Assembly (NCBI GenBank): GCA_022013205.1
Contig: JAKLQT010000244.1
Location: 1 to 36,843, forward strand
Direction of reading: 5' to 3'
DNA length: 36,843 bases
Source: Candidatus Omnitrophota bacterium
Lineage (GTDB): Bacteria > Omnitrophota > Gorgyraeia > B26-G9
The notes beneath the pieces are model-generated. The model was not told the DNA's origin. It saw only the letters and a program-made list of their open reading frames with translations, and made no database searches. A program made the position numbers and the translations under genes. Below are positions 14,040-35,233 of this stretch, piece after piece (position 1 is the stretch's first letter; each line of letters starts with the position of its first letter).

Positions 14040-14856
14040 TTACAAACCGCGGCCGAAAAAAAGGCTCGGGCAGCATTTCCTTATCGATAAAGCGGCGCTG
14101 GGAAACATCCTGGACGCCGCTCGGCTTTCTTCCGAGGACTACGTCCTGGAAATCGGCAGCGGGAGCGGCAACCTCAGCGTACTGCTGGCGAAACAAGCCG
14201 GAAGATTCTACGCCCTGGAAAAGGATACGGCCTTTAACGCGGTTCTTAAAAGCCGGCTCAAACCTTTCCCCTGCAGCAAAATCATCTTCACCGACATACT
14301 CGCGTTTGATATAAAAGAAATATTCGAAGGCAGAAAATATAAAGTGATCGGCAACATCCCCTATTACATCACCTCGCCGATTATCACGCGGCTCATCGAA
14401 CAGCGTGAATACATCGACACGATACTCATAACCATCCAGAAAGAAGTCGCGCAGCGCATCGTTGCCTGCCCGGGGACGAAAAACTACGGACGGCTTTCCA
14501 TACTTGCGCAATTCTACACCAGTCCGGAACTCATAACCATCTTTCCCAAAAAATTATTTTCTCCGGCTCCGGAAGTTGACTCCGCGCTGATACGCCTAAA
14601 AATACTCTCTTCCCCATCCATATCCGTTGCCTCGGAAAAGACGTTTTTTAGGGTGGTAAAGGCGATCTTCGCGCAGCGCAGAAAAACACTGTTAAACGGG
14701 TTGCTCGCCGCCGGCTTCGCGATTAATAAAGAAACAATGCTGGAGATACTGAAGAAAACGGATATTACGCCTTCATGCCGCGGGGAACAGCTAAAACTCT
14801 GCGAAATAGGCAGGCTCAGCGACGCGATCGAGGGATATTCACCGCAAAAGATTTAA
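14011..14856 (+). CDS. rsmA: 16S rRNA m6,2A1518/1519 dimethyltransferase (KsgA)
   Basis: KKRLGQHFL, VLEIGSGSG, NIPYYIT, QKEVAQR, FAQRRKTL. Confidence 0.96.
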   Translation: MSRTSNIPVDYKPRPKKRLGQHFLIDKAALGNILDAARLSSEDYVLEIGSGSGNLSVLLAKQAGRFYALEKDTAFNAVLKSRLKPFPCSKIIFTDILAFDIKEIFEGRKYKVIGNIPYYITSPIITRLIEQREYIDTILITIQKEVAQRIVACPGTKNYGRLSILAQFYTSPELITIFPKKLFSPAPEVDSALIRLKILSSPSISVASEKTFFRVVKAIFAQRRKTLLNGLLAAGFAINKETMLEILKKTDITPSCRGEQLKLCEIGRLSDAIEGYSPQKI

Positions 14857-15161
14857 ATCGCCGAACGCAAAACACGGTCAACTTCAATGGCCTTACGGTC
14901 AAAATCAATGCTGTTCAATTCTATCGGCTCAAGCTCATAAACGGAAGCATCATTGCCCTCTTCTATGATCTGCGCCTTAAATGTACTTACCTCACCTGCG
15001 CTAATGATGTTGTGCATCTCCGTACTTACCAATGCCTTCGGCAACTGCACGGATAAGGGGCATATTGATTCAACAGGCAGCATACAAAAAGCAAAACGGC
15101 TGGACATAACCACAATACTCAGAACTGTTATCGCGGAAATTTTCATATTAATTCTTTTCAT
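14853..15161 (-). CDS. Small secreted protein (102 aa), probable divergent member of the IEQAI-tail family
   Basis: ATG at 15161 with AGGAG RBS, signal peptide, SICPLSVQL box, ends VLRSAI*, preceded by the family leader. Stop overlaps the rsmA stop (TTAA). Confidence 0.6.
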   Translation of the reverse strand: MKRINMKISAITVLSIVVMSSRFAFCMLPVESICPLSVQLPKALVSTEMHNIISAGEVSTFKAQIIEEGNDASVYELEPIELNSIDFDRKAIEVDRVLRSAI

Positions 15162-15235
15162 CTTTCTCACTCTCCTGCTTTCGTTACTCACTTCTCTGTT
15201 TAAAAAAATTAACCGTCTTTTCTAAAAGGTAATTA

Positions 15236-15376
15236 ATTATACCATATATTTTTCTTCTTTGCAACTCAGTCACGCCAAATATTTTATTACTGCAACATAT
15301 TGCAAAACAATGTGTTATATAAATTTATCCGCAGAAAGATTATTCTTCTCTGCAGAAAAAACAAAAACTTGCGGCG
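15236..15376 (-). promoter_or_regulatory. Family leader copy 1: promoter + palindrome + GCAG-N13-YTGC box
   Basis: TTGCAA-17-TATAAT with TG extension (15264-15236), TGCAAC-N17-GTTATA (15291-15319), GCAG-N13-TTGC (15352-15372). Confidence 0.7.
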
Positions 15377-15384
15377 TTTTATCC

Positions 15385-15404
15385 GCTATGAGCTATGAGC
15401 TATG
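15385..15404. repeat. AGCTATG heptamer tandem directly after an IEQAI stop codon
   Basis: gctatg-agctatg-agctatg abutting TTA at 15405. Confidence 0.75.
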
Positions 15405-15814
15405 TTATATCGCCTGTTCGATAAGCTCTAGGCGCTTCTTGTTAAACACTGTATTTTCTCTTTTGCCCCCCCATATCCATCATCTCCACACTTGTAGCCT
15501 TAATCCAATAGTCTTTTATAACCAAGAGGAATCCATATTCTTTCAGCTCTTTTCTCATAGCCAAAGAAAATCATATCCCAGTATTTACTCAAAGTTACTA
15601 AATTTTTGCTATTCCCATTTATCTTTTTTAAAAGGTTTGCCATCCACCTTTCAAAAACATTAATATCCTTCTTAATTCTCCCATGGCTATTTACAACAAC
15701 CTCGCCTGCCCCGCCCCAGGTAATATCTAATACCAAAAACGCCTGAATCAGCGCCAAAGCAATTATTTTAAATATTCTTTTGTTTTTTGGTTTTTCGTAT
15801 TTCCCAATTTCCAT
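15405..15814 (-). pseudogene. Degenerate IEQAI-tail family member
   Basis: Signal NKRIFKIIALALIQAFLVLDITWG, ORF stops at 15500. An out-of-frame tail KRENTVFNKKRLELIEQAI* is encoded at 15464-15405, next to a G7 run (15466-15472). Confidence 0.7.
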
Positions 15815-15903
15815 AAATTTCCATAAATTTCTTATTTCTTCGTTCTCGTCCCAGTGAGCGCAGCGAATGGTTTTAATTTTATTCATCCGGCAAATTTTTA
15901 TTT

Positions 15904-18813
15904 TCAAATCGATTGGGCAATAAAAAATTCGTTATTTTTAATTTTAAATGCGGTTACGGCACAAGGCATAACATCCGAAACGGGAATATCTCTCAAAAGA
16001 TGCCCGGCCATTTCTTCAACTTCCAGATTGGTAATATTAAGAGCCTCTCTAACGCGTTCTAAAGAAATACCACTTGTCATACACGCTCGGATATAAGTAT
16101 CTATTTCCTTTCCCAGATTAAATCGCTCAGCAATATATTCCCAGGCAGAAGCTTTCCCGTCAATTATCTGTCTTACCCGCAATAGCTCTTTAGCAAAAAA
16201 AATCCTCATTTGCCTACTGCCGCAATCAGAAATCACTTTAATTAACCTGCTAATATCCAAATTGCTTTTGGCTAAAAATTTTTCTATTTTTGCTATTTCA
16301 CGTTTTAATTCATCATCAGATGATTTACCGGCAACTGTTTTTAATATCTCTCGCATTAATAACAAACTCTCCAAAGAAAACATAAAAAGGCCAATGTTTT
16401 TCTCCGCTTCGGCGACATCTGATGTCAGTTCTGCCTGAAACGCTATTTTATTTTTTATTCTCTCCAGATAAACATTCACATCCTTTATCTGTGTATCTAT
16501 AAAATTACCATAAAGTTGTATAATCTTATCTCTGTCTTCACGGTTTTTGTTGAACCCAAAATTATCAGAATCATTATAAACAAGCATGTAAACCAACGCT
16601 TCATTAATAACCGCCTCTATTGGAAAACGTTCCTCATTTATTAATGAGGAAAATCTTCCTCCTATCTTCTGAGTCGACACCCTGCTCAGATTCTGCCTAT
16701 ACCATACCGGAACCACAATATTTGATTCAGGGAAACCATCAATAAAACTCATTTTAAATATTAAGCCTTCTTCTTTAAAATCAGGCCGTGAGATTAAATT
16801 ACGAAAACTCGGAGTATGGACATAATATTCCAAGAAATTATTTCCCCATGCCCCAAAGAATCTGTAACTCTTGGCCAAAGAATAAATTCTAAAAAAAGAA
16901 TCCCAAAAATCGGCCCATGTGGTATCAGAATTGATTAGTATAAAAAAATTTGTATTTTTAATTTTGTATTTCTCGCATAATTCGATAACCCGTTCTACAT
17001 CATTCATGGAATAACCAAGTTTTCCCCCTTTACCCAAACGACGGATTTCCCTGTCAGTAAAACCATCTACTCCAATTGCGATTCTTCCCAATCCGTTAAT
17101 CTTTGCCAATGACTCGAACAGTGATTCATCAATAATCTTTTTCCCATCTCTTTTTTTGAAAAAGCTATTCACCGAAACCGCTAATGAACCGCAGGTAAGC
17201 CCCAATCCCTGGGTGATTTTCAAAATCTCCATCCCACGGGATTTCTGGATAAACATATCGTCATCAACAAACCAGACAGTCAGGGCTTGTTTAAATTCCG
17301 CAGACAATTCATTTCCTTCATAAAGAGCAGACACCCTTTCTTTATATGCCGTTAAAAATTCCTTCACGCTGTCCACGGAAAATGTCCTGTATACCGGCCC
17401 CATAATCTGAGCGCAAAAACTACACCGGTAAGGGCATCCCCGGCTGGTAATCAATGTTAACCCATACTGAACATCCGATTTATTCAGAAAACCAAAATCA
17501 ATTTTAAACTCTTTCATCGCCTCATCAAGATTATAAAAATAATTCAGATAATCAAGATTTGCAGCAAGGCTAGTTTTACCGAACCGCAAATAGGCGCCAA
17601 ATAACGGTGTTAATTTAAAAGCTGTCTGCCGGGATAAATCCTGAGAGGCTTTCTGTCCTGCCAAAGAAACAAGCGCCTTTTTAAACACACCTTCTGCTTC
17701 TCCGGCAATAATCACATTTGCCTCTGGGATATGCTGAGCAAGCAAATCCGGAGCCAGCGTAACCGAAGGCCCTCCCAGAGCTATAACTACGTCTTTATTT
17801 ACCGCGCGGATAGCACGCACAAAATCCTGAACTGCCTTAATTTCATTGAGGGAAGGCGTAATCATTGATATAGCCATCACATCAATCTTCTCCAGATTAA
17901 TACATTCAATAATCCGGCTATTTTCCGCGTCAGTCGTGCCTTTTACGAATGAAATATTCATCCCTTCTTTTCTTAAACTCATTGCTAAAAACATATTCCC
18001 CAAAGAAGGCCCGGCAAGTGTCTCCGTCCGCGCATCGCGGGCATCAAAAAAATCGACAAAAAGCACGGAAGGTGATTTTTTGTTTTTCTTCAAAGGCATT
18101 TCAATATTTTTTCTAACCATTGTTTCTGTTTTTATACCGGCCATACCGTTAAATGCTTCCGCAATCAATGCCTGGATACGCTCTTTCTCCGCAAAGATAA
18201 GATTAATTCCAATATTTATCTGTAAAAAACAAGAATCTCTGCTTGATTTTATGGTAATTCCCTGCACATCATCACGAATCGTAATCTCGCCAAATACATC
18301 TTGCACTCTAAAACGCCTAAAAAATTCTTCCGCAATAAGCGACTGTATTCTCATCTTAGCCGCTTCCTTTTGCTGAGATGATTTTTCCGCTTCATAATCC
18401 TTACTCTCTTCCCTGACAAACCACGTCCCGGGAAAACCAATTGTTTGTTCCACCGGCAGATTATCTTTAGCACGAATAATCCTGCCTCCCGCGTCGAACT
18501 GAACCCTTGTTCTCTGGGGATAAATATTATATTTCTTTTGTTTAAGCTTTGATAATCGCAACTGCGGCAAATTGGTTATTTCATGGCCAATTTGTAACCC
18601 GCTACCCGGATTATAGCTGATGCCAAACTGGCCATAATCACTGTATGCTTTCTGAAATAATTCCTTATTTATTTCAAGCTGAGGGCTTAAACTGGTTACA
18701 ATCTTTCCGCACCTATCATTATCAGTGAAAGATAAATCACTAAATCCAAAATCCAGCATCATAAAAGCATGGATAAGCGCTAATGAAATTATTTTAAATA
18801 ACCTTTTATTCAT
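15904..18813 (-). CDS. IEQAI-family protein carrying a B12-binding radical SAM domain
   Basis: Family signal + SLSPQLEI box, cobalamin-binding-like (PSLG..LA..L, LGGPSVT, GEAE), TSRGCPYRCSFC CxxxCxxC, FVDDDM, ends FIAQSI*. Confidence 0.85.
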   Translation of the reverse strand: MNKRLFKIISLALIHAFMMLDFGFSDLSFTDNDRCGKIVTSLSPQLEINKELFQKAYSDYGQFGISYNPGSGLQIGHEITNLPQLRLSKLKQKKYNIYPQRTRVQFDAGGRIIRAKDNLPVEQTIGFPGTWFVREESKDYEAEKSSQQKEAAKMRIQSLIAEEFFRRFRVQDVFGEITIRDDVQGITIKSSRDSCFLQINIGINLIFAEKERIQALIAEAFNGMAGIKTETMVRKNIEMPLKKNKKSPSVLFVDFFDARDARTETLAGPSLGNMFLAMSLRKEGMNISFVKGTTDAENSRIIECINLEKIDVMAISMITPSLNEIKAVQDFVRAIRAVNKDVVIALGGPSVTLAPDLLAQHIPEANVIIAGEAEGVFKKALVSLAGQKASQDLSRQTAFKLTPLFGAYLRFGKTSLAANLDYLNYFYNLDEAMKEFKIDFGFLNKSDVQYGLTLITSRGCPYRCSFCAQIMGPVYRTFSVDSVKEFLTAYKERVSALYEGNELSAEFKQALTVWFVDDDMFIQKSRGMEILKITQGLGLTCGSLAVSVNSFFKKRDGKKIIDESLFESLAKINGLGRIAIGVDGFTDREIRRLGKGGKLGYSMNDVERVIELCEKYKIKNTNFFILINSDTTWADFWDSFFRIYSLAKSYRFFGAWGNNFLEYYVHTPSFRNLISRPDFKEEGLIFKMSFIDGFPESNIVVPVWYRQNLSRVSTQKIGGRFSSLINEERFPIEAVINEALVYMLVYNDSDNFGFNKNREDRDKIIQLYGNFIDTQIKDVNVYLERIKNKIAFQAELTSDVAEAEKNIGLFMFSLESLLLMREILKTVAGKSSDDELKREIAKIEKFLAKSNLDISRLIKVISDCGSRQMRIFFAKELLRVRQIIDGKASAWEYIAERFNLGKEIDTYIRACMTSGISLERVREALNITNLEVEEMAGHLLRDIPVSDVMPCAVTAFKIKNNEFFIAQSI

Positions 18814-18950: not shown

Positions 18951-19021
18951 TCTCTCTCTGTCCCAGCGAACGCAGAGAGCGATCGTCCATCGGACTTCGG
19001 CTTGCAGCCTGCAGCAGCGTG

Positions 19022-19070
19022 TCAGCCATCAGCTATCAGCTATCAGCCATGAGCTATGAGCTATGAGCCA
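19022..19070. repeat. Seven-copy T(C/G)AGC(C/T)A heptamer array
   Basis: TCAGCCA TCAGCTA TCAGCTA TCAGCCA TGAGCTA TGAGCTA TGAGCCA, 10 nt downstream of an LELIGQAI stop. Confidence 0.9.
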
Positions 19071-19080
19071 ACGAAGCCAT

Positions 19081-20200
19081 TTATATCGCCTGCCCTATCA
19101 ATTCCAAGGCTAAAATTTCAGGACACAGCGCCGGCAATTCGGGAGCTGCCAGCAACTGCATTTTTTTCTCCGCCACGCCAAGCTGTTCCTCCAGCTTAGG
19201 CAAGGCGTTTTTCGGATCGCCAGTACGGATTTCCGTCTTCCACTCGCCGGCTAAATAAGGTTGCCGGCTCTTCTTCCGTAATTTTTACGGCAAAAACGCG
19301 CTTCTCCGGCACAGTCACCAATGCCGGACGCGGAAATAATTCCGAGAGATGCTGCCACCATTCTTTGAGCTTGTCTTTCAGCTTGTTCCTAAGCGAAATG
19401 TAATTTTTCAGCGGCCAAATTACGTAAGAATACGGCCAAATTAGCGGCATGATCGCCAGGGATAAATGCGGCTCATAAAAGTAAAGATGCAGATCGCCTT
19501 TCCAGTCTACGGCAAAGGCTTTGGGCCGGCTGAATTCCCGTTTCAGCGTCTTGTTTTCGTTTTGCGGATCATCCGCGAAAAGCTCAAGGTCACCTTGATA
19601 AAACACCAGCAGCCCGCGGCCATCCTCATAATTTTCATTAATATGTTTAGCTAAGAGCTCAACATAAAAAGCAACAACAAACACACCAGCGAGAGAAGAA
19701 ACTAAATACGTCAGAGCATTGAAGTTAAACCCTTTGATAGTAGAGACAAAATAAACGACAATTTTAGCCACCAGAGACGCCCAACATCCGGCCCGAATTT
19801 CCATCAGATGCTCTCGAATATCTTCCGGCAAATCCTCAAAAGCAATAATAATTTTGCCTTTCGGCTGGTTATTATCCCCGCGCTTGCCGCTAGTTGCCTT
19901 CTGCGCATTCTGCGGGTTCTTCCTGCCGGAAACACCAGGAGATTCCGCCGGCAGAGCCATCCTCATCGCCCCGCTTACACCGCCGGATGCCGCAGCGAAA
20001 AATTCCAAGCCGCCGGACGAAAACTGCGAGCCACGGTCTGCCAGCCGCGAATAAGCCGTTTGAAACTGCTCCGCTCCGATTTGCACCTGCGGATTCAAAG
20101 TCTTTGGCTCAGCGACCCGGCCTGTGCCGCACCACGCGCAATCCATCACCAAAAATGCCTGGATTAATACAAACGCAATCAATCTGAATAATTTATTCAT
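19081..20200 (-). pseudogene. IEQAI-family membrane protein with one frameshift before its tail
   Basis: Family signal + TLNPQVQI box, TM segments. ORF stops at 19196, but the adjacent frame is open 19284-19081 and ends PEILALELIGQAI*. Removing one A from the A5 run (19282-19286) restores it. Confidence 0.78.
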
Positions 20201-20291
20201 TTTATTTTATTTTTTCCATTTTCAAAATACTTAATTCATTAAAATAAATAAAGTTATGATTATATCCCGCCATTTTTTAAAATGGCATAAA

Positions 20292-20430
20292 AGTATACCA
20301 CATCTTTTCTCCCTTTGCAAAAAAAAGAATAAACATTTCATTACTGTAACACCTTATAATACAATGCGTTACACAAGCGTATCCGAGAGGTTAACCATTC
20401 TTTTGGCAGAAAAAACAAAAACCTGCGGCG
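20292..20430 (-). promoter_or_regulatory. Family leader copy 2
   Basis: TTGCAA-17-TATACT (20320-20292), TGTAAC-N17-GTTACA (20345-20373), GCAG-N13-CTGC (20406-20426). Confidence 0.72.
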
Positions 20431-20535
20431 AATAAATTGGTATTTACGATTAGTTTTGCGGCTCTCGCAATTTATTATGATTGTTGTTGCCCAAAAACCT
20501 TTACAGCGGAAAATCCTCTAATGATTCTTATCTAC

Positions 20536-21407: not shown

Positions 21408-21409
21408 AG

Positions 21410-24400
21410 TTATATCGCCTGCTCGATAAGTTCCAAATTAATGGTTAAATTTTCTTCAAGTTTTACGCTTACGCTCTCTAATAACATTTTCACTTGAATC
21501 TCTGATGGATCATCCACTTTTACCATATGTACATCCGGCAGTGATTCGGCGGAGATTACTGCCTGCGATGGGTCGTTTTTACCAAATATAGCTGTACGCA
21601 AATCAAAATTACTCTCAATATCCGCCCTAAGAATTTCTTCTTCTGCAGCATCCTCGGTTTTATAAACCTTCTCCAGAGCATACTGTTCTTCAATTTCCTG
21701 TTCAGTTTTAGTATTCATCGGCTTTAGCAATAAATCAAAAAGCCCTGTTGAAACCACCGGCTGGGTTTGCTGATACAATCCCGCAGTAATAGTACCCGGC
21801 ACAGAATGTCCGTAACAATCAGAGTAGTCGAATTCAGAACGGCCGCGGAAGAGCTGGAACACATACTGTTCAATTGCCCCTTCTTTAACTTTATCATTTA
21901 CCGCCGGCCTGTATTGAGAACCCGCAACAGGCAAGCCGGTTTTTTGCGACAATATATCCAGCGCCGCATAGAGTTTGTCGATTTCTCTTACACCAAACTG
22001 CGTACTCTCTTCCACAAAGATATCCGCTTGTTTATTGCCATCCTTGTCCTCCAATATTCTCAGCCTGACTATCCTTCTGGTAATAACGTTTCTATTCTCA
22101 TCCAATAATACCACTGCCTTGTTTGTCCCGTTAACCACATAACCCGTAAGCCCCCTGCTTAAATTAGTGCCATAGGTACAGCTCTGGCATGCCGTTGAGC
22201 CGCGATAGTTTCCTATGTTAAATAGAATATAGAAGTCATCGGTAAACTCAATAGCCGCCTTATCTCCTTTTTCCGTTGTTATTACATACTGAAGAAGCTT
22301 TTCCCAATTTTTAATTTTTTCAATCCGCGATTTTAAACCAGCGAACCCATCAAGATTATGCAATTTTTCATAAAGAGTCTCTCCTTGAGCTTGTTCAAAT
22401 GCTTTTTTAAGCGCTGTTTGTTCTTTTACAGAAAGCTTATTAATCTCTATATCTATAATTTCATCTATAGTCTTTTTATAATCTTCGCTTTCATATTTCC
22501 ATTGCTTAAAACGACCGTCAATTTCCGCCTCAAGGGCAGCTAAAATATTTTCATAGATTTCCTTATCGGTAATGGACCTTAGATAAATATCTATCAGATT
22601 ATAAATGTTTCTTCCTTGATGATCTCTCCATTTAAATCTTGGATTATTTGCCGCGTAATTTCTTAATTTTTCAAGGAAGACAGATTCATTCCCTATAGAT
22701 ATAAATTTTTTAAATCGAGCTAACAAAACTTCGGCATCAATCATTGCTAATCGCTCTGATAGATCTTTTATTTTTGCGTCATTAATGTCTTTTCCGGATA
22801 AGAGATCATTCAAAATAGCTTCACTATTGCTCTCAAAGATTTCGTTGATAAGTTCTGGAAACAGTTTATCTTTAGATTTTTTATAAGTATCAATGACTTT
22901 TAAATACTGTTCCAGGTAATACATCAGTTCATCATAAAATCTCTCTGAATTCTCCGGAGAAGGAAAACCTTCTCTTTGCTCAATAGCTTCCAGAAGTTTT
23001 GCCAAAAGCTCACCGCTGCGATCATAATTCAATGTCAATAACAAAACCATCTGTTCATATAATTTGTTTTTAACCGTAGCTAACTGGTCATGTATATTTT
23101 TATTGGTGTTTAACGATCTAATCAATTGCCTGAAGGTATTCAGGGTTTTTGTATCTGAGTTTATCCGTAACAGTATTCCATAAAATATATGCGGGATTTG
23201 TGTTGTTATTTTCGACAATGTAATCTGTTGAAATAAGTTATTGATGTCTTCTTTAAAACATTTCAATTCTTCACCGGACAGTTTCGTAGCCGCATATTTT
23301 CTTTCCTGGTATAAATTTCGCAGCTGTTTAAATACCTCTTTCTGCTGTTTCTTATCTTGCAATCGAACGGCATTTTCTAAGTAATCATAAAAAACAGTAT
23401 TCTCAGCCAATAAATAACGGTTCTCCTCAAGAAAATATCTTATAAAAAGTGCCTTTCCACCAAGTGTTGTTAAATTGCCTCCATTTTTGAGTTCATCAAT
23501 TATCTTTAGAATTATTGTATTATCTGTCGTGATACCAAATAAAACTTTTAAACAAATCCTTAATTGACTCCCGGCTGGCTGCCCCAAAAACTGAGTTTGC
23601 AACTCGGAAAATAATTCATCTTTTTTTTCAATTGATAAAGCGTCAATGGCCTGAAATCCATCAGCGAGCATATCTTCTTTGGCTTCTTGCGAAATACTTT
23701 CCAGCTTAAATCTTAAGATATCCAATAAACTAAGATTGCTGCCTTCCGCAATAAGATTTAACCCAGGAAATTTCTGCGCCTTATCAATTTCTTCCAATAC
23801 GCTGATTAAATCTTCCACCGTCTTACCCTGCCTGCTCAACCCTTGAGAAACCGGCTCAAGCTGTTCGATCTTGGCTTGTAAAACAAATAAGTTAGACAAA
23901 ATCCAGCCTGCCTGTCTTATGATAAAGTCTGCGTTAGGCATGCCCTGCAACTGCTGTTTTACAGCATTCGTTATTTCTTCTAATGACTGCTTTGGGTCTT
24001 CTATAATTGTTCTGATGATTTTCTTAATATCTTCTATCGAAAGATATTTTAGCAGTTCGTTTATCGAAGAAATCTCGATTTTATATCGTTCCGGGTTATT
24101 TCTAAAAAACCGATCAAAAATCTCCTTGGCTTGCGAAATATTTTCCAAAGAGAATAAATATTCGAATAAGCTGTTTTTTTGATCCTCGCCGATCCTCATT
24201 TCAGCCGGATGAAGCGTCACTTCCCGGTTCAGGTTATAGGCAATCTCATTTAGTTGCGTTTTAAAAGCAGGCTCAGACAATCTTCCAAGAATGTTTTCAA
24301 TATCCTTTCTCTGGTCTTTTATAAACCTCGCAAGCTTTATATTGATTTTTAATGCCTTGGCAATTATTGCTTCCGGTGCAGCGTTAAGAATTTGTATTTT

Positions 24401-26968: not shown

Positions 26969-27058
26969 TTTATTTTATTTTTCCCATTTTCAAAATACTT
27001 AATTCATTAAAACAAATAAAGTTATGATTATATTCTGTCATTTTAAAAAAGGCATTTA

Positions 27059-27196
27059 AGTATACCATATCTTTTCTGCCTTTACAAGGGAGGCGGTAAA
27101 TATTTTATTGATGTAACATCTTAAAATACAATGTGTTATGTAAATATACCCGAAAAGAAAACCATTCTTTTGGCAGGAAAAACAAAAACTTGCGGT
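27059..27196 (-). promoter_or_regulatory. Family leader copy 3
   Basis: TTGTAA-17-TATACT (27087-27059), TGTAAC-N17-GTTATG (27112-27140), GCAG-N13-TTGC (27173-27193). Confidence 0.72.
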
Positions 27197-27267
27197 GAAT
27201 TGTTTGCAGCCTAAATGATAAACAATGATATTTGAGAACATCCTTCTAATGCAAATTTCGGGATGAT

Positions 27268-30200
27268 TTATACGGCTGATTCTATGGTAGAGTGCGGCGA
27301 TAACGGTTGTATTGTGTGCCGCAGAGTGAGAGTAGGTACTTTTACATTTTGAACCTTCCCCTTGGAGTTAGGAACTACCCTTTTATCCTTTCCGCCTGGA
27401 GCCTGATTGATTTTAGAGATAGTCTCATGGGGAACATAAGGAACTATAATTTCTCCCAAATCCAGGATGTTTAACCGCGGCTTCTCCGGATTTCGCTTAT
27501 CAACATAATAAAAATCCACATTGTAACGCATTTTTGCCGTATCCATTACTCCGTTTTTTACCGGATGTCCTAACCGTGTAATAACCGTATCACTAATTTC
27601 AAACCTATTGACAACCCTGATATCTCCGCCTGTATACAGGGAACCGCTGGGGCCGGAATCTTTTGTCATCGCTTCCGCACTTTGCTTATATAATGTCATC
27701 AATGCTTTTTCTTCCAGCAAAGATAACCTCTCTTCCTTTACTGCTTGCTGAACACGGTTTAAAAAATCCGGCCGACAAAAATATGACCCGTAAGATTCCA
27801 CAAAAAAACTTTCCACCAGTTGCTTGCTTAAGTTACGCGCTTTAAGCTCCTTTTGCAAAAATACTTCGGGTAAAGCATGAAAATGAAAAGAGAAAACTCC
27901 GTTTATAAAACGCCGATCATCCAAGTTTTCGTAACTGTCGTCTTTTTCCGAATAAGACTGCACACTGTTCGGCCATAAAGTTCCGTCTTGTCTTAAATCC
28001 CAGATTCCTCCGTATTCGGTGGTGTGATCAAACATATCCTTAGCGCCGATTTCGCTCAATCTTGCGGCTAGTTGCGGATTATGCAAGGCCTTCTCTACGA
28101 GTACGAGGCGTAAAAGAGCCAGATTGGAAAATCTTTCAAATGCCGGACGTTCGGTGTAATCAGAAGACGGCTTTATTTTCTTTGGGCCATCTTCTGTCCA
28201 AATGGTTATCGGCAAATCATCCCTTTTCTGTCGTGGGAAAGCCTTACGGGTTAATATATCCTTAATTTCACGGATCATTGCCTGACGGTCAAACAGCATC
28301 TTTTCAAGCTCTGGCGAAATCTCATTTAAAAGCAGCACATCGCTGATAGTCACCCGTTCTCCCAGAGTTTCCAATCTGTTGATAATTCCTTCCATTCTTT
28401 CCCGGTTAAATTTTTCGGCTATTCTTATCACTGTTAAAAAAGAGGAGCTGTGCAATTGCCTGATATAAAAACGCGTCTTAATAAATGAAACTACATCCTT
28501 AAATCGCAAAGAAAAAAGCAGGCTCATTTTTTCGCGGTCCTTTGCAACCGAATCGTAGAGTTCGGATAATTTCATAAGATCACGGATATCTTTTGCCCCC
28601 CCGTAAAATTGTTTGATGATTTTCTCGCTGAACCTTAAGAAATTATTGTCCTTCAAGTTATGAACAAACCGTTTGTCCGAATACGCGGCCATGGCCGCTA
28701 TTTTCAGCGGCTTATAGTCACGATAATTCGTCTTTAAATCAAAACCAAGCCGCGCCAGTTTATCCAGCACAAAAACCGTCTCAGGAGTGTAGTTATCTGA
28801 AATGTCCAAGGCTTTCAACAATATTTTTTCCTTCGTCCCTTTCCCCGGATACATGCGGGAAAAGAAGGCATTGAGCTCATCATATATCGGCCGCATTGAC
28901 GGTTTTTCCAGATCTTCCAACAGATAATCTATTGTAAAAATGGAAATATTATTTGAAAATTCCACAATTTCAATTTTACTGAATCCATATTTTTTTTGTA
29001 AAATATTCGCGGCTTTGAGAAATTTCTCAACATCTATCAACTTATAACATAAAAACCACTGTAACCATGCCAGGGGAACTTTTCCCTCAACAAGTTCTCC
29101 TTTTTTCTGGAAATACTCAACAAAATATTCTTTCCATAGTTTACCCTTCTTTTGCGCCTCGAGGTCATATGCTTCTATCAGCAAACGCGCATTATTTAAG
29201 AAACCAACTTTGTCATAAAAATCATTCAGGGCCGTAAGCACAACAGGTTTGCCGTCCTCAATCCGGCTTATTAAGCGATATTGTTTCTTCAGCTTTACAA
29301 ATTTTTCGGCATTCTTTTTATCCAAATAAAAATCGCGTTCTTCCGGGTTGAGCAATATCTCAATAAACCGGTCAAATCCCAGGCTGCTTAACTGCCAATT
29401 TTTTATCAAAACATCATAGAGAGTAGCGGTAACAGGCGATTGCAACTGCTCATAAATTTGTTTGAAATTCAAATCATATTCCGCCGCTTTACCAAATATG
29501 TTCTCTTGCGGCAATACTACTGCCTTGAAATTTTTTTTCTCTAAAAGATTTATGATTTTGATCCTGGTTTTAACATCTTCCAATTTGAATTCCGGCATGC
29601 CTCTTGTCCTTAAACGCTGTATACTGTCATTCAACCGCCAAAAATCCTGCTGCGAACCATAAGCCTTAATAATATGGGTCATCACCCCCAGAGACATCCG
29701 GTTTTTTAATTCAGGATAGCGCGCAGTTAATTTATCAACGAATCTCCGGAAGTTACGGTTATCGGCAGAAGGAAAGACATAGCTTCCGGCATAGTCTGAG
29801 GTGAAATCAAGCTTACCGAGATTAGTATTAAAAAGGCTTAACAGGGAATCATAACGCATTAAAAAATCCTTAAACTCAGCGGGGCTCATCTCATCCGTCG
29901 CCCAAACCTCCAGATACTTATCTACAAGCTCAAGCTTTCTTAGATTAAAAGCGCCGGCTATCTTATATAACAATTTCCAGAATAAACTATCTTTCTGCCT
30001 ATAAAAACTACTTCTCAGTGACAAAACATCACTGTGACCGAGAAACTCGCTTACTGTCTCATATGCAACTCTCTGCGGATATTTATCCTTAAAATAGGAC
30101 CAGATCGTTAATGACAAGGGATGACTTAAAGATTCCATTTTATCCTTATCCACTTCAACCAGACTTTTAAAATCAGATACATCTTCGATTTTAACTCCAT

Positions 30201-31323
30201 ATGTTGAGCGGAGAAATACATATTGCCGCGCCCATTTTTTAACGGTTTTTTCGTAATCAATTTTCTCTCGCAATGGGCTTTCAGCAAGAGCAGTCAAAAT
30301 CCTTATATTCAGAAGGTAACTGATATCAAATTCTACGCCCAACGGTTTAAAATACTGTTTAAGAACAGAAAAAGACTGCGTTATCCGGCCGGACACAAAC
30401 TGCTCCAAATGGGGAGGCGATAAATATATATCCAGCGCTTGGGACAGATAATTGTTTGGAGTTATGTTATACATTTTTTCCAAAAAATCACAAAATACCC
30501 TAAACTCCGGACTTTTTAAAGTATGTAAATATATCTTTTTTTCTTTTTCCTCTTTCGTGATAATGGTAAAGATTTCTAAAAAAGGGACATCAGCGGTTTG
30601 CAAATCCAGATTTTCCGCCGCCCATAACAATGTTTCTTTAAACTCGCGCGAGGAGATAATTACCTTAATTTCAGCAAGAGTTTTTTTCAGGAGACTCCTA
30701 TCAAATTCAATCAATTCGAATGAAAATTGTTCGTTGAATTCCCGTAAGATTGAAAGCATTTGCGCATTTTCCAGGGTAAAAAATTTTCGTTTTGTAATAC
30801 CGGGATTCCTGCCCTTGTGCCAGTCGAAAACTAAATCCCATCTGTACCATCCCTGCGCCCTCAATATTAATAAGAGATCTTTCGCGGGAATGGATTCCAG
30901 TGTTACATCCCCGGCTATTAACTGCTCTCTGGTTGCCTGAAGTTCGGAAATATTTCTTGAGATGCCGGGAGGAAACAGCTGATGTCCGCTGAACCCAGGT
31001 ATTAGTCGGTCACCGGGTTGCATAAGCATTAAAAGAGCAGACATTGTTAATATGGCTTTTTTTATTTTACTCAGTCTTTTTGCTTCCAGAACAAAATCGG
31101 CATTGCCCTTTTCCGGAAGAACAATGTTTTCTGCTTGAAAAATCTGTTTTACATGTTCTTGCGAAATTTGGACGGCAGGAGCAAGCGTATCATAAGCTTT
31201 TTCTCCGCTAATGACCATGTCATTGCCGGCCATTCCCGTGGAAAAACAAAAAATTGGCGGAAAAATAAGTAAACTAATTAATTTTATTAATCTCGGGCTT
31301 AACTTTATTTTGTCTATCTTCAT
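27268..31323 (-). CDS. Large (1351 aa) IEQAI-family protein with C-terminal JAB/MPN-like motif
   Basis: Signal + DTLAPAVQI box, helical core, TTEYGG...FHFH...GPS...GGD, ends TIESAV*. Confidence 0.8.
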   Translation of the reverse strand: MKIDKIKLSPRLIKLISLLIFPPIFCFSTGMAGNDMVISGEKAYDTLAPAVQISQEHVKQIFQAENIVLPEKGNADFVLEAKRLSKIKKAILTMSALLMLMQPGDRLIPGFSGHQLFPPGISRNISELQATREQLIAGDVTLESIPAKDLLLILRAQGWYRWDLVFDWHKGRNPGITKRKFFTLENAQMLSILREFNEQFSFELIEFDRSLLKKTLAEIKVIISSREFKETLLWAAENLDLQTADVPFLEIFTIITKEEKEKKIYLHTLKSPEFRVFCDFLEKMYNITPNNYLSQALDIYLSPPHLEQFVSGRITQSFSVLKQYFKPLGVEFDISYLLNIRILTALAESPLREKIDYEKTVKKWARQYVFLRSTYGVKIEDVSDFKSLVEVDKDKMESLSHPLSLTIWSYFKDKYPQRVAYETVSEFLGHSDVLSLRSSFYRQKDSLFWKLLYKIAGAFNLRKLELVDKYLEVWATDEMSPAEFKDFLMRYDSLLSLFNTNLGKLDFTSDYAGSYVFPSADNRNFRRFVDKLTARYPELKNRMSLGVMTHIIKAYGSQQDFWRLNDSIQRLRTRGMPEFKLEDVKTRIKIINLLEKKNFKAVVLPQENIFGKAAEYDLNFKQIYEQLQSPVTATLYDVLIKNWQLSSLGFDRFIEILLNPEERDFYLDKKNAEKFVKLKKQYRLISRIEDGKPVVLTALNDFYDKVGFLNNARLLIEAYDLEAQKKGKLWKEYFVEYFQKKGELVEGKVPLAWLQWFLCYKLIDVEKFLKAANILQKKYGFSKIEIVEFSNNISIFTIDYLLEDLEKPSMRPIYDELNAFFSRMYPGKGTKEKILLKALDISDNYTPETVFVLDKLARLGFDLKTNYRDYKPLKIAAMAAYSDKRFVHNLKDNNFLRFSEKIIKQFYGGAKDIRDLMKLSELYDSVAKDREKMSLLFSLRFKDVVSFIKTRFYIRQLHSSSFLTVIRIAEKFNRERMEGIINRLETLGERVTISDVLLLNEISPELEKMLFDRQAMIREIKDILTRKAFPRQKRDDLPITIWTEDGPKKIKPSSDYTERPAFERFSNLALLRLVLVEKALHNPQLAARLSEIGAKDMFDHTTEYGGIWDLRQDGTLWPNSVQSYSEKDDSYENLDDRRFINGVFSFHFHALPEVFLQKELKARNLSKQLVESFFVESYGSYFCRPDFLNRVQQAVKEERLSLLEEKALMTLYKQSAEAMTKDSGPSGSLYTGGDIRVVNRFEISDTVITRLGHPVKNGVMDTAKMRYNVDFYYVDKRNPEKPRLNILDLGEIIVPYVPHETISKINQAPGGKDKRVVPNSKGKVQNVKVPTLTLRHTIQPLSPHSTIESAV

Positions 31324-31457: not shown

Positions 31458-31506
31458 TTCTTTTAAATAGTTATGCTCTATAATCAAGGTTAAAAATAAT
31501 CGTTAA

Positions 31507-31593
31507 AGTATACACTATTTTTGAAAATTTCGCAAAATAATCAAGCGGTAAATATAATTTGTGCTGCAACATATTGATATAATTAAAGTTAAA
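31507..31593 (-). promoter_or_regulatory. Family leader copy 4 (more diverged)
   Basis: TTGCGA-17-TATACT (31535-31507), TGCAAC-N17-GTTAAA (31565-31593) containing CAAcataTTGATA, a match to the IHF consensus YAANNNNTTGATW. Confidence 0.6.
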
Positions 31594-31619
31594 GAAAAGG
31601 CTAAGTTAACGCGGCAAAT

Positions 31620-32555
31620 TTATTTATTCTTAGCGGATAAATGCACACAAATTTGGCAGGCAATCTCTTTAGGCTGGTCCTCTTTTCTTGTCCGGATCCA
31701 GACAATATCCTTATCCTGCCTGAACCAGGTCAACTGGCGTTTGGCAAACCGGCGCGTATCGCGTTTAAGTATCTCCACAGCCTCCGCGAATGAACAGTCC
31801 CCGTCTATATAAGCAAACAATTGCTTTATACCTAATACCTGGCACGCGGTCTTACTCAGCTTCATAACCTTAAGCCGCCTTGCCTCTTCCAGGGCTCCCT
31901 GCCGCAGCATGGCATCAACTCGGCCTTCAATCCGCTGATAAAGCTCTCCGCGTTCCCTTTCCAGGCCGAACATCATCACCCGATATGACGCGTCCAGGCC
32001 GCTGATTTGCGTTTTGAGTTGAGAGATCGGCTTTTTATTCAGTTCATAGGCCTCAAGGCTGCGGATAACCCTGCGCAGATTATTCGGATGAATCTTTTTC
32101 GCCGCCTCCGGGTCCACCTTTTGCAGCCGTTCATAGAGGTAATCATTTCCCTTTTCTTCCGCCAGCTTCTGCAATTTTACACGCAGCTGCTTATCTTTGC
32201 CTTTATCTTCAAATAACCCTTTGGTTAATACCCGCACATACAATCCCGTGCCGCCGGCAATAAGCGGGATGTGATTACGCGAATGAATCTCCGGAATCAG
32301 CTTTAACGCCTTCTCGCGGAAAAGCGCCGCGCTGTATTCTTCATCAAGCTCCAGGCAATCAATAAGATGATGCACTGCCCGCGAACGCAGTGCCGCGGAA
32401 GGCTTCGCGTTGAGAATATCCATGCCGCGGTAAACCTGCATGGAATCCGCGGAGATAATCTCCGCGTTTATAAGGCAGGCAAGCTCTACGGCAACTTCCG
32501 ACTTTCCACTTGCCGTCGGACCAATTAAAAAGATAACTAATGGTTTTTTTAACAC
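31620..32555 (-). CDS. miaA: tRNA dimethylallyltransferase
   Basis: GPTASGKS, DSMQVYRGMDI, HHLID, GGTGLY, TRRFAKRQLTWFR. Confidence 0.97.
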   Translation of the reverse strand: MLKKPLVIFLIGPTASGKSEVAVELACLINAEIISADSMQVYRGMDILNAKPSAALRSRAVHHLIDCLELDEEYSAALFREKALKLIPEIHSRNHIPLIAGGTGLYVRVLTKGLFEDKGKDKQLRVKLQKLAEEKGNDYLYERLQKVDPEAAKKIHPNNLRRVIRSLEAYELNKKPISQLKTQISGLDASYRVMMFGLERERGELYQRIEGRVDAMLRQGALEEARRLKVMKLSKTACQVLGIKQLFAYIDGDCSFAEAVEILKRDTRRFAKRQLTWFRQDKDIVWIRTRKEDQPKEIACQICVHLSAKNK

Positions 32556-32604
32556 AATCTACGTCCTTACTTCGAAACTGAGACAATTATAACATACTTG
32601 AAGT

Positions 32605-32671
32605 CAGAAGTCAGACATCAGAAGACAGAAAAAATCAAAATCTGTATTCTGTTTTCTGTCGTCTGTCTTCT
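32605..32671. repeat. Inverted pair of heptamer arrays (CAGAnnn x4 / TCTGnnn x4) forming an imperfect hairpin
   Basis: cagaagt cagacat cagaaga cagaaaa (32605-32632) and tctgtat tctgttt tctgtcg tctgtct (32641-32668). Confidence 0.75.
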
Positions 32672-32673
32672 CC

Positions 32674-33450
32674 CTACGGGAAGATATGCGTCGGCAGGTT
32701 TTCTTTGTCTTTGAGCTGGTTTTCCATGTATTCCGCGGCAAGGCGGGAGGCAAACTCTCCGACGCGCACACGGTAGAGCTTTCCCTTGCGGGATTCCAAC
32801 GGCGTAATATACGCCTCATAACCTTTAGACTTCAGGTCATCATACAAACTCTGCGCGTTCTCCATAGAGGTAAAACAGCCGACCTGTATGGTAAAGAAAT
32901 TACCGCCCACGGTAGTGGCCTTTGCCAGTTGCGCCTCAAAGCTTTCCGGAAATTTCTTATGCAATTGGCTGAAATAATACTCCGATTTTGCCAATTCGCT
33001 TTTTCCCTGATAAGCCCTGCCTAACTTATAAAAAAGCATCGCCTGGTAATCGGTATCACTGCCCTTTGTCAGCAACTGGTCGTATATGCTCACCGCGTCA
33101 TCGTAATTATGCTGCATGAAATAGGTATCGGCAATCCCGATATATAATTCCGTGGAAAGCGGCTTCTGTATATAAGGAATCGCCTTACGGAACGCATCGC
33201 GCGCCTTTTCATAGTATTCCATATTAAACAGGCAAACGCCCTCGACATAAAAAATTTCGCCTTTTGCCGCTTTATCAGCAGCGCCGCGTTCAAGCCGGGA
33301 GCACTCGTTCAGGGCTTCCCCAAATTCGCCTCTAAGCATCTTCGCGAACACAGGGTCCAGGCTTTTTGTATACCCGTAGGCAAACAAATTGCCGGCCAAA
33401 ATGCTCATTAACCCAAAACAAATAATTATAACTATCAGTCTTTTACGCAT
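32674..33450 (-). CDS. Secreted TPR + SPOR peptidoglycan-binding protein
   Basis: Signal peptide, TPRs, SPOR domain FTIQVGCF...NAQSL...L...GYEAYI...LYRVRVGEF. Confidence 0.88.
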   Translation of the reverse strand: MRKRLIVIIICFGLMSILAGNLFAYGYTKSLDPVFAKMLRGEFGEALNECSRLERGAADKAAKGEIFYVEGVCLFNMEYYEKARDAFRKAIPYIQKPLSTELYIGIADTYFMQHNYDDAVSIYDQLLTKGSDTDYQAMLFYKLGRAYQGKSELAKSEYYFSQLHKKFPESFEAQLAKATTVGGNFFTIQVGCFTSMENAQSLYDDLKSKGYEAYITPLESRKGKLYRVRVGEFASRLAAEYMENQLKDKENLPTHIFP

Positions 33451-33709
33451 TGGATAACTTTCACCGGATATCGGCCGTTGGCCATAGACTACCTTTTCCC
33501 GTATTTTATCATATCCGGTGAATGTTAAAAAGAAATTATTACAAAGCGGATTCTGCAGGTCATTCGTAAATAATACGGCAGGGAGACATCAAGCCCTGCC
33601 TCCATCATCTCCCGCTCATCCAAAACAGCGTTATGCCGGTCTTCCAGCCATGGTGTGATCTTTTCCGCGCCGCCCTGATCTCCGAAAAATAAGATATCTA
33701 TGACCGGTC

Positions 33710-33738
33710 TTGCAGTTTTCGGAAATTTATGGTATATT
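33710..33738 (+). promoter_or_regulatory. Promoter of the 469-aa family member
   Basis: TTGCAG-17-TATATT with TG extension, same TTGCA/ATGGTATA style as the other family promoters. Confidence 0.55.
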
Positions 33739-33823
33739 TAATAACCTTTTGTAATAAATGATTAAATAAATAAGCAAATTTTAATACACAGAACACTTAT
33801 AAACCCCAAAAGTAAAATAAAAA

Positions 33824-35233
33824 ATGAACAAAAGAATATTCTTTAAAACAGTATCGTTCGTCCTTATTATATCATTTTTGTCGCTGGATATGTCTTGGGC
33901 GGGGGGAAGAATAATCCCTCCCTCTAAAAACAAAAACACACTCAGTCCATCTCTGCAAATAGATAGCCAAGAAATAAAAAATTCCCTGAAAACTCATTAT
34001 TTTAAATTATCAGCTCCTACTAAAATCAAAATAAACTCGGGACATATTAACCTTCAAAATTATAAGCGTCCTAAAGTACTTAATATATCAGAATTTATTA
34101 AGGGAATAAGCTTTTTATTAATATCTATTGGTATACTTAGTTTTATCTTACAAAAATTTATGGGCAGATTCACGGCAGAGTATATATCTATTAGTCTAAT
34201 CGTAGGCATTAGCGGTGCAATGATGACTATTCTCAATGAAGTGAGTATAGCAATTTTCGGCAGAGAATTCACAATAAATCTTACTTCGCTGCCTGAACTC
34301 GATATTGAAGGAGTTTCAAATTTAGCGCCAAAGATAAAAGATCGATTTTTAAACATGCTATATCGGCTTGGATTAAGAAATGAACTAAACTTTAAAAACC
34401 CAAGCCCCAGCGGAGATTTCGTAATTTTAGGGAGCAAAACGTTAAACATGGATGATGAAACGGTAAAAGTATATTTTGTCAATTCTCTTAATCCTATGAA
34501 ATCCTCTTTTGAAAATGGCCATGCTTTTATAACCAACCCCAAAGAACGAAAAATCCATGTCGTCCTTAATGTTATTGCGCAGGAAATTAATTGCGAAATT
34601 ATGCCTTATTTGGAAAAAGGTGAAATTAGACTGCCGCATAACGACCGATTAGCCTTAGAATTTAAAAACAATCCTGCACTTTTAAACAATCACAAAGAAA
34701 CAATAGCCTTGATTTATTCATTATTAGGAAGGGAATTTGAAGGCATGTCCAGGGAACAGGTAACCCAAAAAATCGTTAATGCTGCCATCAAGCACAAATT
34801 AACCCAGCTCTCTTTTAACTTAACCGGGCAAAAGATTGAAGACAAAAACCTTGACCTTTTACTAAAAATTAAAGACGGGACAACACCGTTTTTAGCGCTT
34901 AAAGCTCTATTATCTAACGCTATATTAGGAGAAGAGAGTAATGAAATCATAAAAATGCTCGGCAAGGAATTATCATATCCGCATTCATCCGCAACAACCT
35001 ACCAGGATTGGCTTGAAACCTCCGGGATACTCAAAATAGAACATTCAGAACTCAAAAAAATAGCGAAAGAAATTTATTATCAAATCAGGCAAAAAACAGA
35101 AGCACAAAATTCAATACCTTCTGAAACTTTAGGAGTGAAAACTTTGAGCAGTATTCCCCCTCTGCCCCCCAGCCTATCGATGCTCGCCGGCAATCCGCAG
35201 CACTCTATGTTACCTTTCGAACAAGCGATTTAA
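33824..35233 (+). CDS. IEQAI-family membrane-anchored protein (469 aa)
   Basis: Signal MNKRIFFKTVSFVLIISFLSLDMSWA + TLSPSLQI box, two TM segments, Pro/Ser-rich linker, ends PFEQAI*. Confidence 0.82.
   Translation: MNKRIFFKTVSFVLIISFLSLDMSWAGGRIIPPSKNKNTLSPSLQIDSQEIKNSLKTHYFKLSAPTKIKINSGHINLQNYKRPKVLNISEFIKGISFLLISIGILSFILQKFMGRFTAEYISISLIVGISGAMMTILNEVSIAIFGREFTINLTSLPELDIEGVSNLAPKIKDRFLNMLYRLGLRNELNFKNPSPSGDFVILGSKTLNMDDETVKVYFVNSLNPMKSSFENGHAFITNPKERKIHVVLNVIAQEINCEIMPYLEKGEIRLPHNDRLALEFKNNPALLNNHKETIALIYSLLGREFEGMSREQVTQKIVNAAIKHKLTQLSFNLTGQKIEDKNLDLLLKIKDGTTPFLALKALLSNAILGEESNEIIKMLGKELSYPHSSATTYQDWLETSGILKIEHSELKKIAKEIYYQIRQKTEAQNSIPSETLGVKTLSSIPPLPPSLSMLAGNPQHSMLPFEQAI

Follow-up and report, generated by a model that had tools for sequence, protein, structure and literature searches.

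A possible two-ended sorting address on unrelated proteins of an Omnitrophota bacterium

Genes sharing both termini at the locus

The stretch analysed here, hereafter the window, comprises 36,843 nucleotides of a Candidatus Omnitrophota bacterium (GenBank assembly GCA_022013205.1, contig JAKLQT010000244.1, positions 1 to 36,843). It carries a family of genes whose products share a signal peptide, a short motif behind it (the box) and a free C-terminal hexapeptide (the tail), which together we call the address. The address exists: its two ends co-occur, they are conserved while the protein cores between them are not, and both change jointly between lineages. A sequence-only reading had listed eight loci with shared termini in the window, and all of them are in place, with the N- and C-termini quoted for them, according to a listing of open reading frames (ORFs), their translation and a six-frame scan for tails at a stop codon. 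The window thus holds seven copies of the address, of which five are intact, one is frame-shifted and one is decayed.

A small divergent member (14853..15191, minus strand) is a 112-aa ORF starting from GTG, or about 102 aa when counted from MKRINMK. Its N-terminus is hydrophobic, its box (ICPLSVQLP) is degenerate and its tail is VLRSAI (14856-14873); neither Pfam nor NCBIfam gave a match. A relic ORF of 135 aa (15500..15907, minus strand) contains the signal peptide NKRIFKIIALALIQAFLVLDITWGG at about 15698-15784, is recognised by the N-terminal profile at E=2.6e-7 and has neither box nor tail. Directly downstream of it sits a stub (15405..15476, minus strand), an open frame of 24 codons that reads KKRLELIEQAI before its stop; the relic and the stub are probably the two ends of one decayed member.

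The 969-aa member (15904..18813, minus strand) has a signal peptide, the box LSPQLEI (18646-18690, including the following helix) and the tail FIAQSI (15907-15924). The radical S-adenosylmethionine (SAM) domain claimed for its core was borne out, since B12-binding (47.6 bits) and Radical_SAM (37.9 bits) both score above the Pfam cut-offs and the cluster motif CPYRCSFC (CxxxCxxC) lies at residue 460, as in B12-binding radical SAM proteins. A search for related loci gave no relative of this protein.

The 334-aa member (19196..20200, minus strand) has a signal peptide, the box LNPQVQI (20054-20098) and an adjacent pair of hydrophobic segments (aa 137-178), followed by a frame break before the tail. 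An IGQAI tail had been assigned to this gene; the tail does exist, but in another frame than the 334-aa ORF, which itself ends ...EKRLA. The out-of-frame C-terminal piece (19081..19203, minus strand; open frame of 67 codons) ends LELIGQAI. Contigs from two groundwater runs belonging to different studies match the window identically across the break (X1, 19033-20186; X3, 19162-19312), so that the break is probably not a one-off assembly error, although X1 may be the very sample from which the window was assembled and contigs hide rare variants. Between this gene and the 969-aa gene, a short tandem of 8-9-base units (AGCTATCAG / AGCTATGAG type) occupies 18987-19073. Its contig depth is 210-603 in four groundwater runs, against about 0-34 alongside, and with similar runs on at least 15 further contigs of this genome it is a dispersed intergenic repeat.

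The 1852-aa member (21410..26968, minus strand) starts with the signal peptide MKKLFRLIAFVLIQAFLVMDCAWC followed by G, and has the box LAPKVNM (26810-26854) and the tail LIEQAI (21413-21430). No Pfam domain was found in it; a protein of the same length in the global library (P0126) has a related core and falls into the same BLAST core component. A Tat-like motif, SRRDFLLGAFGVAGLG, lies at 26725-26775 (about aa 66-81), after the box and within the mature part. The regions upstream of the 334-aa gene (20201..20450, minus strand) and of the 1852-aa gene (26969..27218, minus strand) are copies of one another, and the duplication extends over the first 47 coding bases of both genes. DNA identity between the two genes is 70-96% from -250 to +47 and 62% or less beyond, which indicates that a putative cassette of promoter or leader plus signal peptide was copied ahead of a different core at least once.

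The 1351-aa member (27268..31323, minus strand) combines a divergent signal peptide, the box LAPAVQI (31141-31185) and the tail TIESAV (27271-27288) with an orphan core. The JAB-like domain suggested for this core was not found by profile: its last 352 aa gave no Pfam match at E<=1. An AlphaFold model of the last 352 aa, built without an alignment, was too poor to be of use, with a mean predicted local distance difference test score (pLDDT) of 35.9. Among proteins of 743-2365 aa, residues 1000-1351 retrieved only the protein itself. Finally, the 469-aa member (33824..35233, plus strand) combines a signal peptide and the box LSPSLQI (33941-33985) with two adjacent hydrophobic segments (aa 91-137), a Pro-rich linker and, at 35213-35230, the tail PFEQAI; a protein Atlas search with it returned no usable match.

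Anatomy of the address

The anatomy was derived from 224 aligned N-termini and 71 tails. The N-terminal consensus is M-(K/N)-K…F-K-I-I-A/S-Φ-Φ-L-I-Q-A-F-L-Φ-Φ-D/N-Φ-A-W-A↓G-G, with the arrow at the cleavage site, and within it the signal-peptide core K-I-I-A-x-x-L-I-Q-A-F-L-x-x-D-x-A-W-A↓G-G is unusually fixed, down to its glutamine (176/224). The n-region is basic (K/R at column 7 in 200/224) and precedes an h-region of 13 residues (columns 8-20). The residue at -1 is small (A/C/S/G) in 213 and that at -3 (A/S/C/V/G/T) in 205 of the 224 sequences. By sequence, then, the module has the features of a Sec signal peptide with a textbook signal peptidase I site, in agreement with the Sec step proposed earlier.

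Between the cleavage site and the box lie 12-16 variable residues. The box itself reads T/C-L(220/224)-S/A-P(212/224)-x-L/I/V-x-I/L/M and is followed by four polar residues and then F/L-Q/K-x-x-F/Y; conservation stops about 55 residues into the protein. At the other end, the free C-terminus follows [LIF]-[IVL]-[E/G]-Q-[A/S]-I, with conservation limited to the last six residues. Of the 47 family members in the genome, only two lack the N-terminal hydrophobic segment, and in about 36 it is the sole one. In a small number, among them the 469- and 334-aa proteins of the window, a pair of hydrophobic segments follows 100-200 residues in. No C-terminal hydrophobic segment was seen among the members.

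Co-occurrence of the two ends in the genome

The genome to which the window belongs (G000) is represented by a 2.7-Mb assembly that is 90% complete. We searched it with a profile of 13 N-termini. These seeds had been picked because their ORFs also had the tail, which makes the co-occurrence partly circular, and hence the counts are also given without them. The profile matched 39 ORFs at E<=1e-3. A tail ending [AS][IV] was present in 28 of the 38 N-module ORFs of at least 150 aa, against 36 of 2007 other ORFs of that length (p=3e-37); with the 13 seeds left out, it was present in 15/25 against 36/2007 (p=3e-19). Among other ORFs with a crude signal-peptide-like start, only 3/412 had it. Several of the tail-less N-matches are split genes in which the following ORF has the tail. 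When weaker matches (E<=1e-2) and six weak N-matches with tails, added by hand, are included, the family comprises 47 ORFs, which total 36,080 aa and make up 4.0% of the assembled bases. Its members cluster in the genome, with six on the contig of the window and four on contig C76.

Cores of the family members

For the comparison of cores, the N-module and the last ten residues were removed. None of the 1081 pairs formed by the 47 members matched at BLASTP E<=1e-3, and one pair was marginal by phmmer. The claim that the shared termini sit on non-homologous cores therefore holds, and the lack of alignable cores excludes simple divergence of paralogs. Likewise, 131 cores from the global library fell into 73 BLAST components.

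The cores recognised by Pfam are mostly enzymes that depend on nucleotides or cofactors (ATP, SAM, FAD, iron-sulfur clusters (FeS) or B12). They include B12-radical SAM, an FAD oxidoreductase, several SAM methyltransferases, HD with cytidine deaminase, NAD(P)HX dehydratase with kinase and cytidylyltransferase, UDP-glucose pyrophosphorylase-like (UDPGP) with CBM48, glycogen debranching enzyme (GDE) with GH77, PGK-like, GGDEF, AAA ATPases, GT1/GT4, HAD and ATP-grasp domains. In addition, inspection by eye suggested a low-molecular-weight phosphatase motif in one small member and a Nudix box in another, both of them candidates. Elsewhere, the genome encodes PGK and NAD(P)HX dehydratase (Nnr) in their canonical forms, and for these two domains the versions with the address are extra copies.

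Distribution among relatives and a second dialect

A second profile (A1), built from 24 N-module sequences, found matches in 17/17 genomes of the same family (8-53 each) and in the one genome of a sister family (39). Three of 12 other families of the class also gave matches, with 1-6 each. Across 301 genomes sampled from the whole phylum, only the own family had multi-copy matches at E<=1e-6. We then looked at the tails of 40 ORFs, taken from 17 of the carrier genomes by N-match and length alone. Among the 38 whose 3' end is closed, the ending Φ-x-x-[AS][IV] occurs in 35 and [AS]I in 37, and the co-occurrence predicted for the relatives was thus found.

The global library (1.84 billion representatives) yielded 486 clusters at E<=1e-3. 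All the matches listed fall in the first ~90 residues, and most of them start at residue 1. In the best 150 of the 486 clusters, the frequency of the tail rises with protein length, from 4/25 below 250 aa to 20/30 at 250-500 aa, 36/46 at 500-1000 aa and 45/49 at 1000 aa or more; the proteins below 250 aa, with their few tails, are plausibly fragments.

Other families have a second N-module (A5), …F-K-x-I-S-x-x-L-I-x-T-F-x-S-L-D-I-x-Y-A-Y-P…S-T-L-A-T-P-S-V-F-Q, which is related to but distinct from A1 and to which the weak A1 matches in those families proved to belong. A profile of seven such sequences detected the module 4-11 times per genome in five other-family genomes, the longest of the ORFs concerned reaching 11,305 aa. 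Of the closed A5 ORFs sampled, 14/17 end …A-A, preceded by a conserved stretch of about 25 residues; the tails of this second dialect (dialect B) include …ALAAA, …LEAA and …LIAA. Among 10 second-dialect ORFs found earlier, three end …AA and the others vary. With both profiles, seven of the 12 other-family representatives (f3, f4, f6, f7, f9, f10 and f13) gave no match. Box and tail therefore switch jointly between lineages, which is the strongest sign of a single function for both ends.

A giant member with SecA domains

A search with SecA_DEAD found, in addition to the normal SecA, another strong copy in ORFs of 7,288-9,133 aa in five genomes (G001, G004, G007, G016 and G018). Further strong copies lie in a 1,621-aa frame of G014 and in a frame of G000 that is truncated by the end of contig C76, and weaker ones in ORFs of 9,200-11,900 aa in G005, G006, G014 and G017, as well as in G021 and G026, both of which are without A1 matches. 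The giants of G001, G004, G007 and G018 start with the N-module. Three giants end …LIGNSI (G001), …LIGNAI (G004) and …LVQEAI (G018), and two other giant N-module ORFs, of 7,423 and 4,956 aa, end …LVEQAI and …GVESAI.

Pfam searches with pieces of the giants of G000 and G001 recognised SecA_DEAD, the preprotein cross-linking domain (SecA_PP_bind, PPXD) and the second P-loop domain (P-loop_SecA, NBD2). The G000 fragment has, in addition, a Peptidase_M23 domain about 1,000 residues beyond the SecA domains, and no hydrophobic segment was found between the two in that fragment. The giant of G018 has 15 hydrophobic segments in its last 1,454 residues. On contig C76 of G000, three ordinary members precede the giant. 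There (C76:10413-18886), the N-module ORF of 333 aa lies just upstream of the SecA-bearing frame, in a different frame that overlaps it by a few codons. A frameshift would explain this, as would two separate genes; N-module and SecA part form one ORF in G007. A PilZ-like ORF, recognised by eye, lies 3' of the giant member. In G001 (C10) and G004 (C98), the small PilZ-like ORF is followed by a 218-aa ORF that resembles, again by eye, a Y1 (IS200/REP-type) transposase.

Signals considered and excluded

No curated model covers either end of the address: 24 N-modules searched against Pfam and NCBIfam gave only singleton matches at E>0.02. A full-text literature search for the tail string returned nothing that, by its title, concerns bacterial protein sorting. 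Signal peptides, transmembrane helices and SecA domains have been reported for giant proteins in the available parts of two studies (10.1101/2023.11.21.568195; 10.64898/2026.06.07.730766). In those parts, neither reports a shared N-box and C-tail nor some 40 ordinary-sized enzymes with the termini of the giant, and the words 'motif' and 'sorting' occur 0 times in the available text of the second.

The individual signals were rejected as follows. A Tat signal does not fit, as the n-region has a single K/R before the h-region and no twin-arginine S-R-R-x-F-L-K; an internal RRDFL motif occurs only in the 1852-aa protein, after the box. For a lipoprotein signal (signal peptidase II), the lipobox L-[AS]-[GA]-C is absent, Trp or Phe precedes the site and Cys stands at -1 in 28/224. 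The profile contains no leader ending in G and followed by F/M-T-L-I-E, as in type IV pilins (class III signals). Cargo of a type I secretion system (T1SS) was rejected on the presence of a signal peptide and the lack of an RTX Pfam match in 26 members; the window genes relevant to this test are Mfd-like, SurA-like, PdxA and RsmA genes, not those for an ABC transporter, a membrane fusion protein or TolC. Two members lie near TolC-like genes, and there the adjoining ORFs of 1046 and 1102 aa have, judged by size alone, the dimensions of resistance-nodulation-division (RND) pumps. The C-terminal domain (CTD) of the type IX secretion system (T9SS) gave no Pfam or NCBIfam match, and conservation is confined to the last six residues. 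A tag of the sortase or exosortase type would have a C-terminal hydrophobic segment; none is present, and the tail is a free end. As for two-partner secretion (TPS; TpsA), there was no Haemagg_act/TPS match and the conserved N-terminal part measures about 55 residues, against about 250 aa for the TPS domain. On these sequence features, the predicted address lies outside every sorting signal tested, as had been claimed. The sequence-only reading had itself named three outcomes that would speak against it, namely no wider co-occurrence, alignable cores and an already described signal; all were looked at and none refuted it. Its interpretation as a whole is partly supported, with the dedicated translocator, chaperone or PDZ/TPR adaptor as reader of box and tail, the exit from the cell and the action on prey as its conjectural part.

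Surroundings of the locus

The family genes of the window are placed between rsmA and miaA. An IS110-family transposase piece lies at 672-1157, and three tetratricopeptide repeat (TPR) proteins flank a 609-aa ORF without Pfam match at 1637-6059, beside a GT2 glycosyltransferase. At 10032-14856 are Mfd-like, SurA-like (peptidyl-prolyl isomerase), PdxA and RsmA genes, the last three of which keep the surA-pdxA-rsmA order of E. coli. The best relatives of the MiaB of the window are in Candidatus Omnitrophota metagenome-assembled genomes (52-56% identity), and the public runs that hold the window sequence are groundwater metagenomes.

Interpretation and rival explanations

We propose that the termini form a new sorting address for an arsenal of delivered enzymes, a reading to which we assign a probability of about one half. 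The signal peptide would take the proteins through the Sec channel, with its fixed core selecting a special route or partner. Because box and free C-terminus both stay on the mature protein after cleavage, they are read here as a two-ended address for a later step, in which one receptor would recognise them together and send or dock the whole set to one destination, a complex of the giant protein at the envelope. From there the enzymes may pass on to a host or prey cell whose cytoplasm would supply ATP, SAM and cofactors. The enzyme repertoire and the status of some members as extra copies fit proteins that work in the cytoplasm of another cell, and delivery of this kind suits the predatory or parasitic lifestyle that the accessible part of one study proposes for Omnitrophota (10.1101/2023.11.21.568195).

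A more specific form of this proposal, which is tentative and in our view rather doubtful, is a novel pathway in which the giant SecA/M23 protein would be hub or conduit and the 40 or more enzymes its cargo, working in the cytoplasm of the victim and selected by a co-evolving two-ended address. The fixed signal peptide might then be read by Sec or by the preprotein-binding domain of the giant's own SecA, and the N-box and C-terminus at a second step.

Several points weigh against delivery by such an address. The first concern the proteins themselves. A SecA ATPase, GGDEF proteins, kinases, methyltransferases and B12/FeS radical SAM enzymes would be without ATP, SAM and cofactor loading in the periplasm; Sec exports unfolded chains, which is incompatible with pre-loaded FeS, B12 or FAD cofactors; and a periplasmic SecA ATPase makes no sense. 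Since no hydrophobic segment separates them in the G000 fragment, either the SecA motor or the M23 domain is predicted to be on the 'wrong' side under any simple topology. In addition, the tail (…AI, …AA) resembles C-terminal degrons described in the part of PMC12723719 that was accessible, and may not be an export signal at all.

The remaining points concern the machinery. No receptor or translocator for the address was identified, and the VirB4 (type IV secretion) and FHIPEP (type III secretion) markers gave no match in the 90%-complete assembly. A dedicated second signal peptidase was rejected: most of 31 genomes have one copy of signal peptidase I, and a non-carrier is among the few that gave two matches. 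Secretins are numerous, with nine genes on nine contigs of the 2.7-Mb G000 genome; carrier-specific secretins were nonetheless rejected, for the 5-11 matches per genome in the order and the 2-6 in other families are numerous in both and do not discriminate. Contrasts between carriers and non-carriers are weakened by the second dialect of other families. A co-fold of the mature N-box region with the C-terminal 35 aa scored 0.01, which counts as 'no answer', and nothing was drawn from it.

Of the rival explanations, docking survives best, although it is unlikely. Box and tail would fasten the enzymes to one scaffold, the giant or the envelope, in the manner of dockerins, which attach cellulosome enzymes to a scaffoldin, while the signal peptide would be merely an ordinary exit and nothing would be injected. 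The giant does share the address and adjoins members on contig C76 of G000, the members are clustered, and a joint change of box and tail between lineages is what a co-evolving binding pair would show. However, enzymes dependent on ATP or SAM would then be docked at the envelope without substrates, no binding site is known on the giant, and scaffold and clients would not be expected to bear identical tags, as the giant and its supposed clients do.

An improbable explanation, and one we would place below docking, is that of a membrane tether plus a degradation tag. The N-terminal helix would be an uncleaved anchor or a ClpX-type N-degron and the …AI/…AA end a degron for ClpXP, FtsH or a tail-specific protease, so that the enzymes would be held at the membrane, rapidly turned over, or destroyed when export fails. 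Such a fate agrees with enzyme cores that require a cytoplasm and with the dialect-B tails; moreover, the accessible part of one source describes recognition by ClpX of the ssrA and MuA C-terminal tags and of the start of the OmpA signal peptide (PMC12723719). On the other hand, the charges before the helix (K/R in 200/224) and the conserved AXA point to N-in insertion, cleavage and cores outside, the conserved LSP box is left without a role, and a degron on about 2% of genes, kept across the whole depth of the family, would be unusual. The tail is also unlike the ssrA tags predicted for its own carriers. The idea that the tail copies the tag encoded by transfer-messenger RNA (tmRNA) found no support: by ARAGORN, the tags of five carrier-order genomes end …VLL, …ALR or …VLR, while the tail of the family is E-Q-A-I. 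These tag predictions are uncertain, as ARAGORN found no tmRNA gene in 6/20 loci although Rfam scored tmRNA in each. In G000 itself, ARAGORN found none and Rfam places one on contig C82 (C82:4570-5010). The carrier-order tags (loci L210-L220; G005, G013, G015, G017 and G018) are long, at 12-31 aa by ARAGORN, and four of them share the motif …LLEKIGSGIAHP.F.GFVPA…; in other families of the class, the ordinary tag ends …LALAA, …AIAA or …PLAA.

The last explanation, a known signal (T1SS, T9SS CTD, sortase/exosortase, Tat, lipoprotein, pilin or TPS), paralog divergence or chance, is largely refuted: an acidic residue followed by small and hydrophobic ones at the extreme C-terminus does recall T1SS protease and lipase tails, and giant proteins are typical T1SS cargo, but T1SS cargo has no Sec signal peptide, neither end is matched by a Pfam or NCBIfam model, twin arginine, lipobox, G↓FTLIE and C-terminal hydrophobic segment are all absent, no RTX, TPS or CTD domains occur in the 26 scanned members, and unalignable cores and the co-occurrence at p=3e-19 speak against divergence and chance.

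Should the termini indeed be a delivery address, they would represent a new secretion logic together with a catalogue of effectors. If they are a degron or a docking tag, the co-evolution of two protein ends across unrelated cores is still unusual. Omnitrophota, which are abundant, ultra-small and uncultured, are believed to live on other cells. Their giant proteins have long been puzzling, and the address ties ordinary proteins to a giant, SecA-bearing one. With one simple rule (fixed signal peptide, LSP box, free …EQAI end), some 40 proteins in each genome can be singled out as a candidate 'second proteome'. The address also supplies handles, in the form of peptides for pull-down, reporter tags and a profile for mining metagenomes.

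Comparison with known systems

Specialised Sec signal peptides are known, such as YSIRK-G/S, the KxYKxGKxW type of accessory-Sec cargo and the ESPR of autotransporters. In these, too, a conserved sequence inside an ordinary signal peptide marks a subset of proteins and implies a special route or site. In contrast, the conserved sequence here is LIQAFL…D-x-AWA↓GG, occurs in another phylum, and is coupled to a box in the mature N-terminus and to a C-terminal hexapeptide; moreover, a second SecA/SecY pair as in accessory Sec was not seen, the sole extra SecA domain being that inside the giant. The tags of LPXTG/sortase, PEP-CTERM/exosortase and GlyGly-CTERM/rhombosortase are similarly short and lineage-specific, occur on dozens of unrelated proteins per genome and have dialects; however, they consist of a motif, a transmembrane helix and a basic tail, whereas the present tag is a free hexapeptide paired with an N-box, for which no sorting enzyme is known.

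Type I secretion tails and the giant adhesins of LapA type with their N-terminal retention modules resemble the address proteins in having an uncleaved signal at the extreme C-terminus, very large cargo and a functional N-terminal element. Type I cargo lacks a Sec signal peptide, whereas the address proteins have one, and no RTX repeats were found in them. By analogy, the peroxisomal targeting signals PTS1 and PTS2 and the MIX effector markers are also very short terminal motifs that direct many unrelated, cofactor-bearing enzymes to one destination. They are eukaryotic or belong to type VI secretion, lie at either end only and work without a signal peptide, while the address uses both ends.

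Degrons of ClpX and tail-specific proteases share with the tail a free C-terminus ending in a small and a hydrophobic residue (AA, AI). According to the available part of PMC12723719, E. coli ClpX reads the C-terminal tags ssrA (…LAA) and MuA (…KKAI) and, as an N-motif, the start of the OmpA signal peptide. The tail of the address, in contrast, is encoded in the genome on one protein family, co-varies with the N-box and differs from the tmRNA tags predicted for its carriers. There is also a likeness to the giants of the same phylum: the accessible part of West-Roberts et al. 2023 (10.1101/2023.11.21.568195) describes Omnitrophota giant proteins with SecA DEAD and preprotein-binding domains, followed by PilZ genes, and the giant member found here shares with them both the SecA domains and the PilZ-like ORF downstream.

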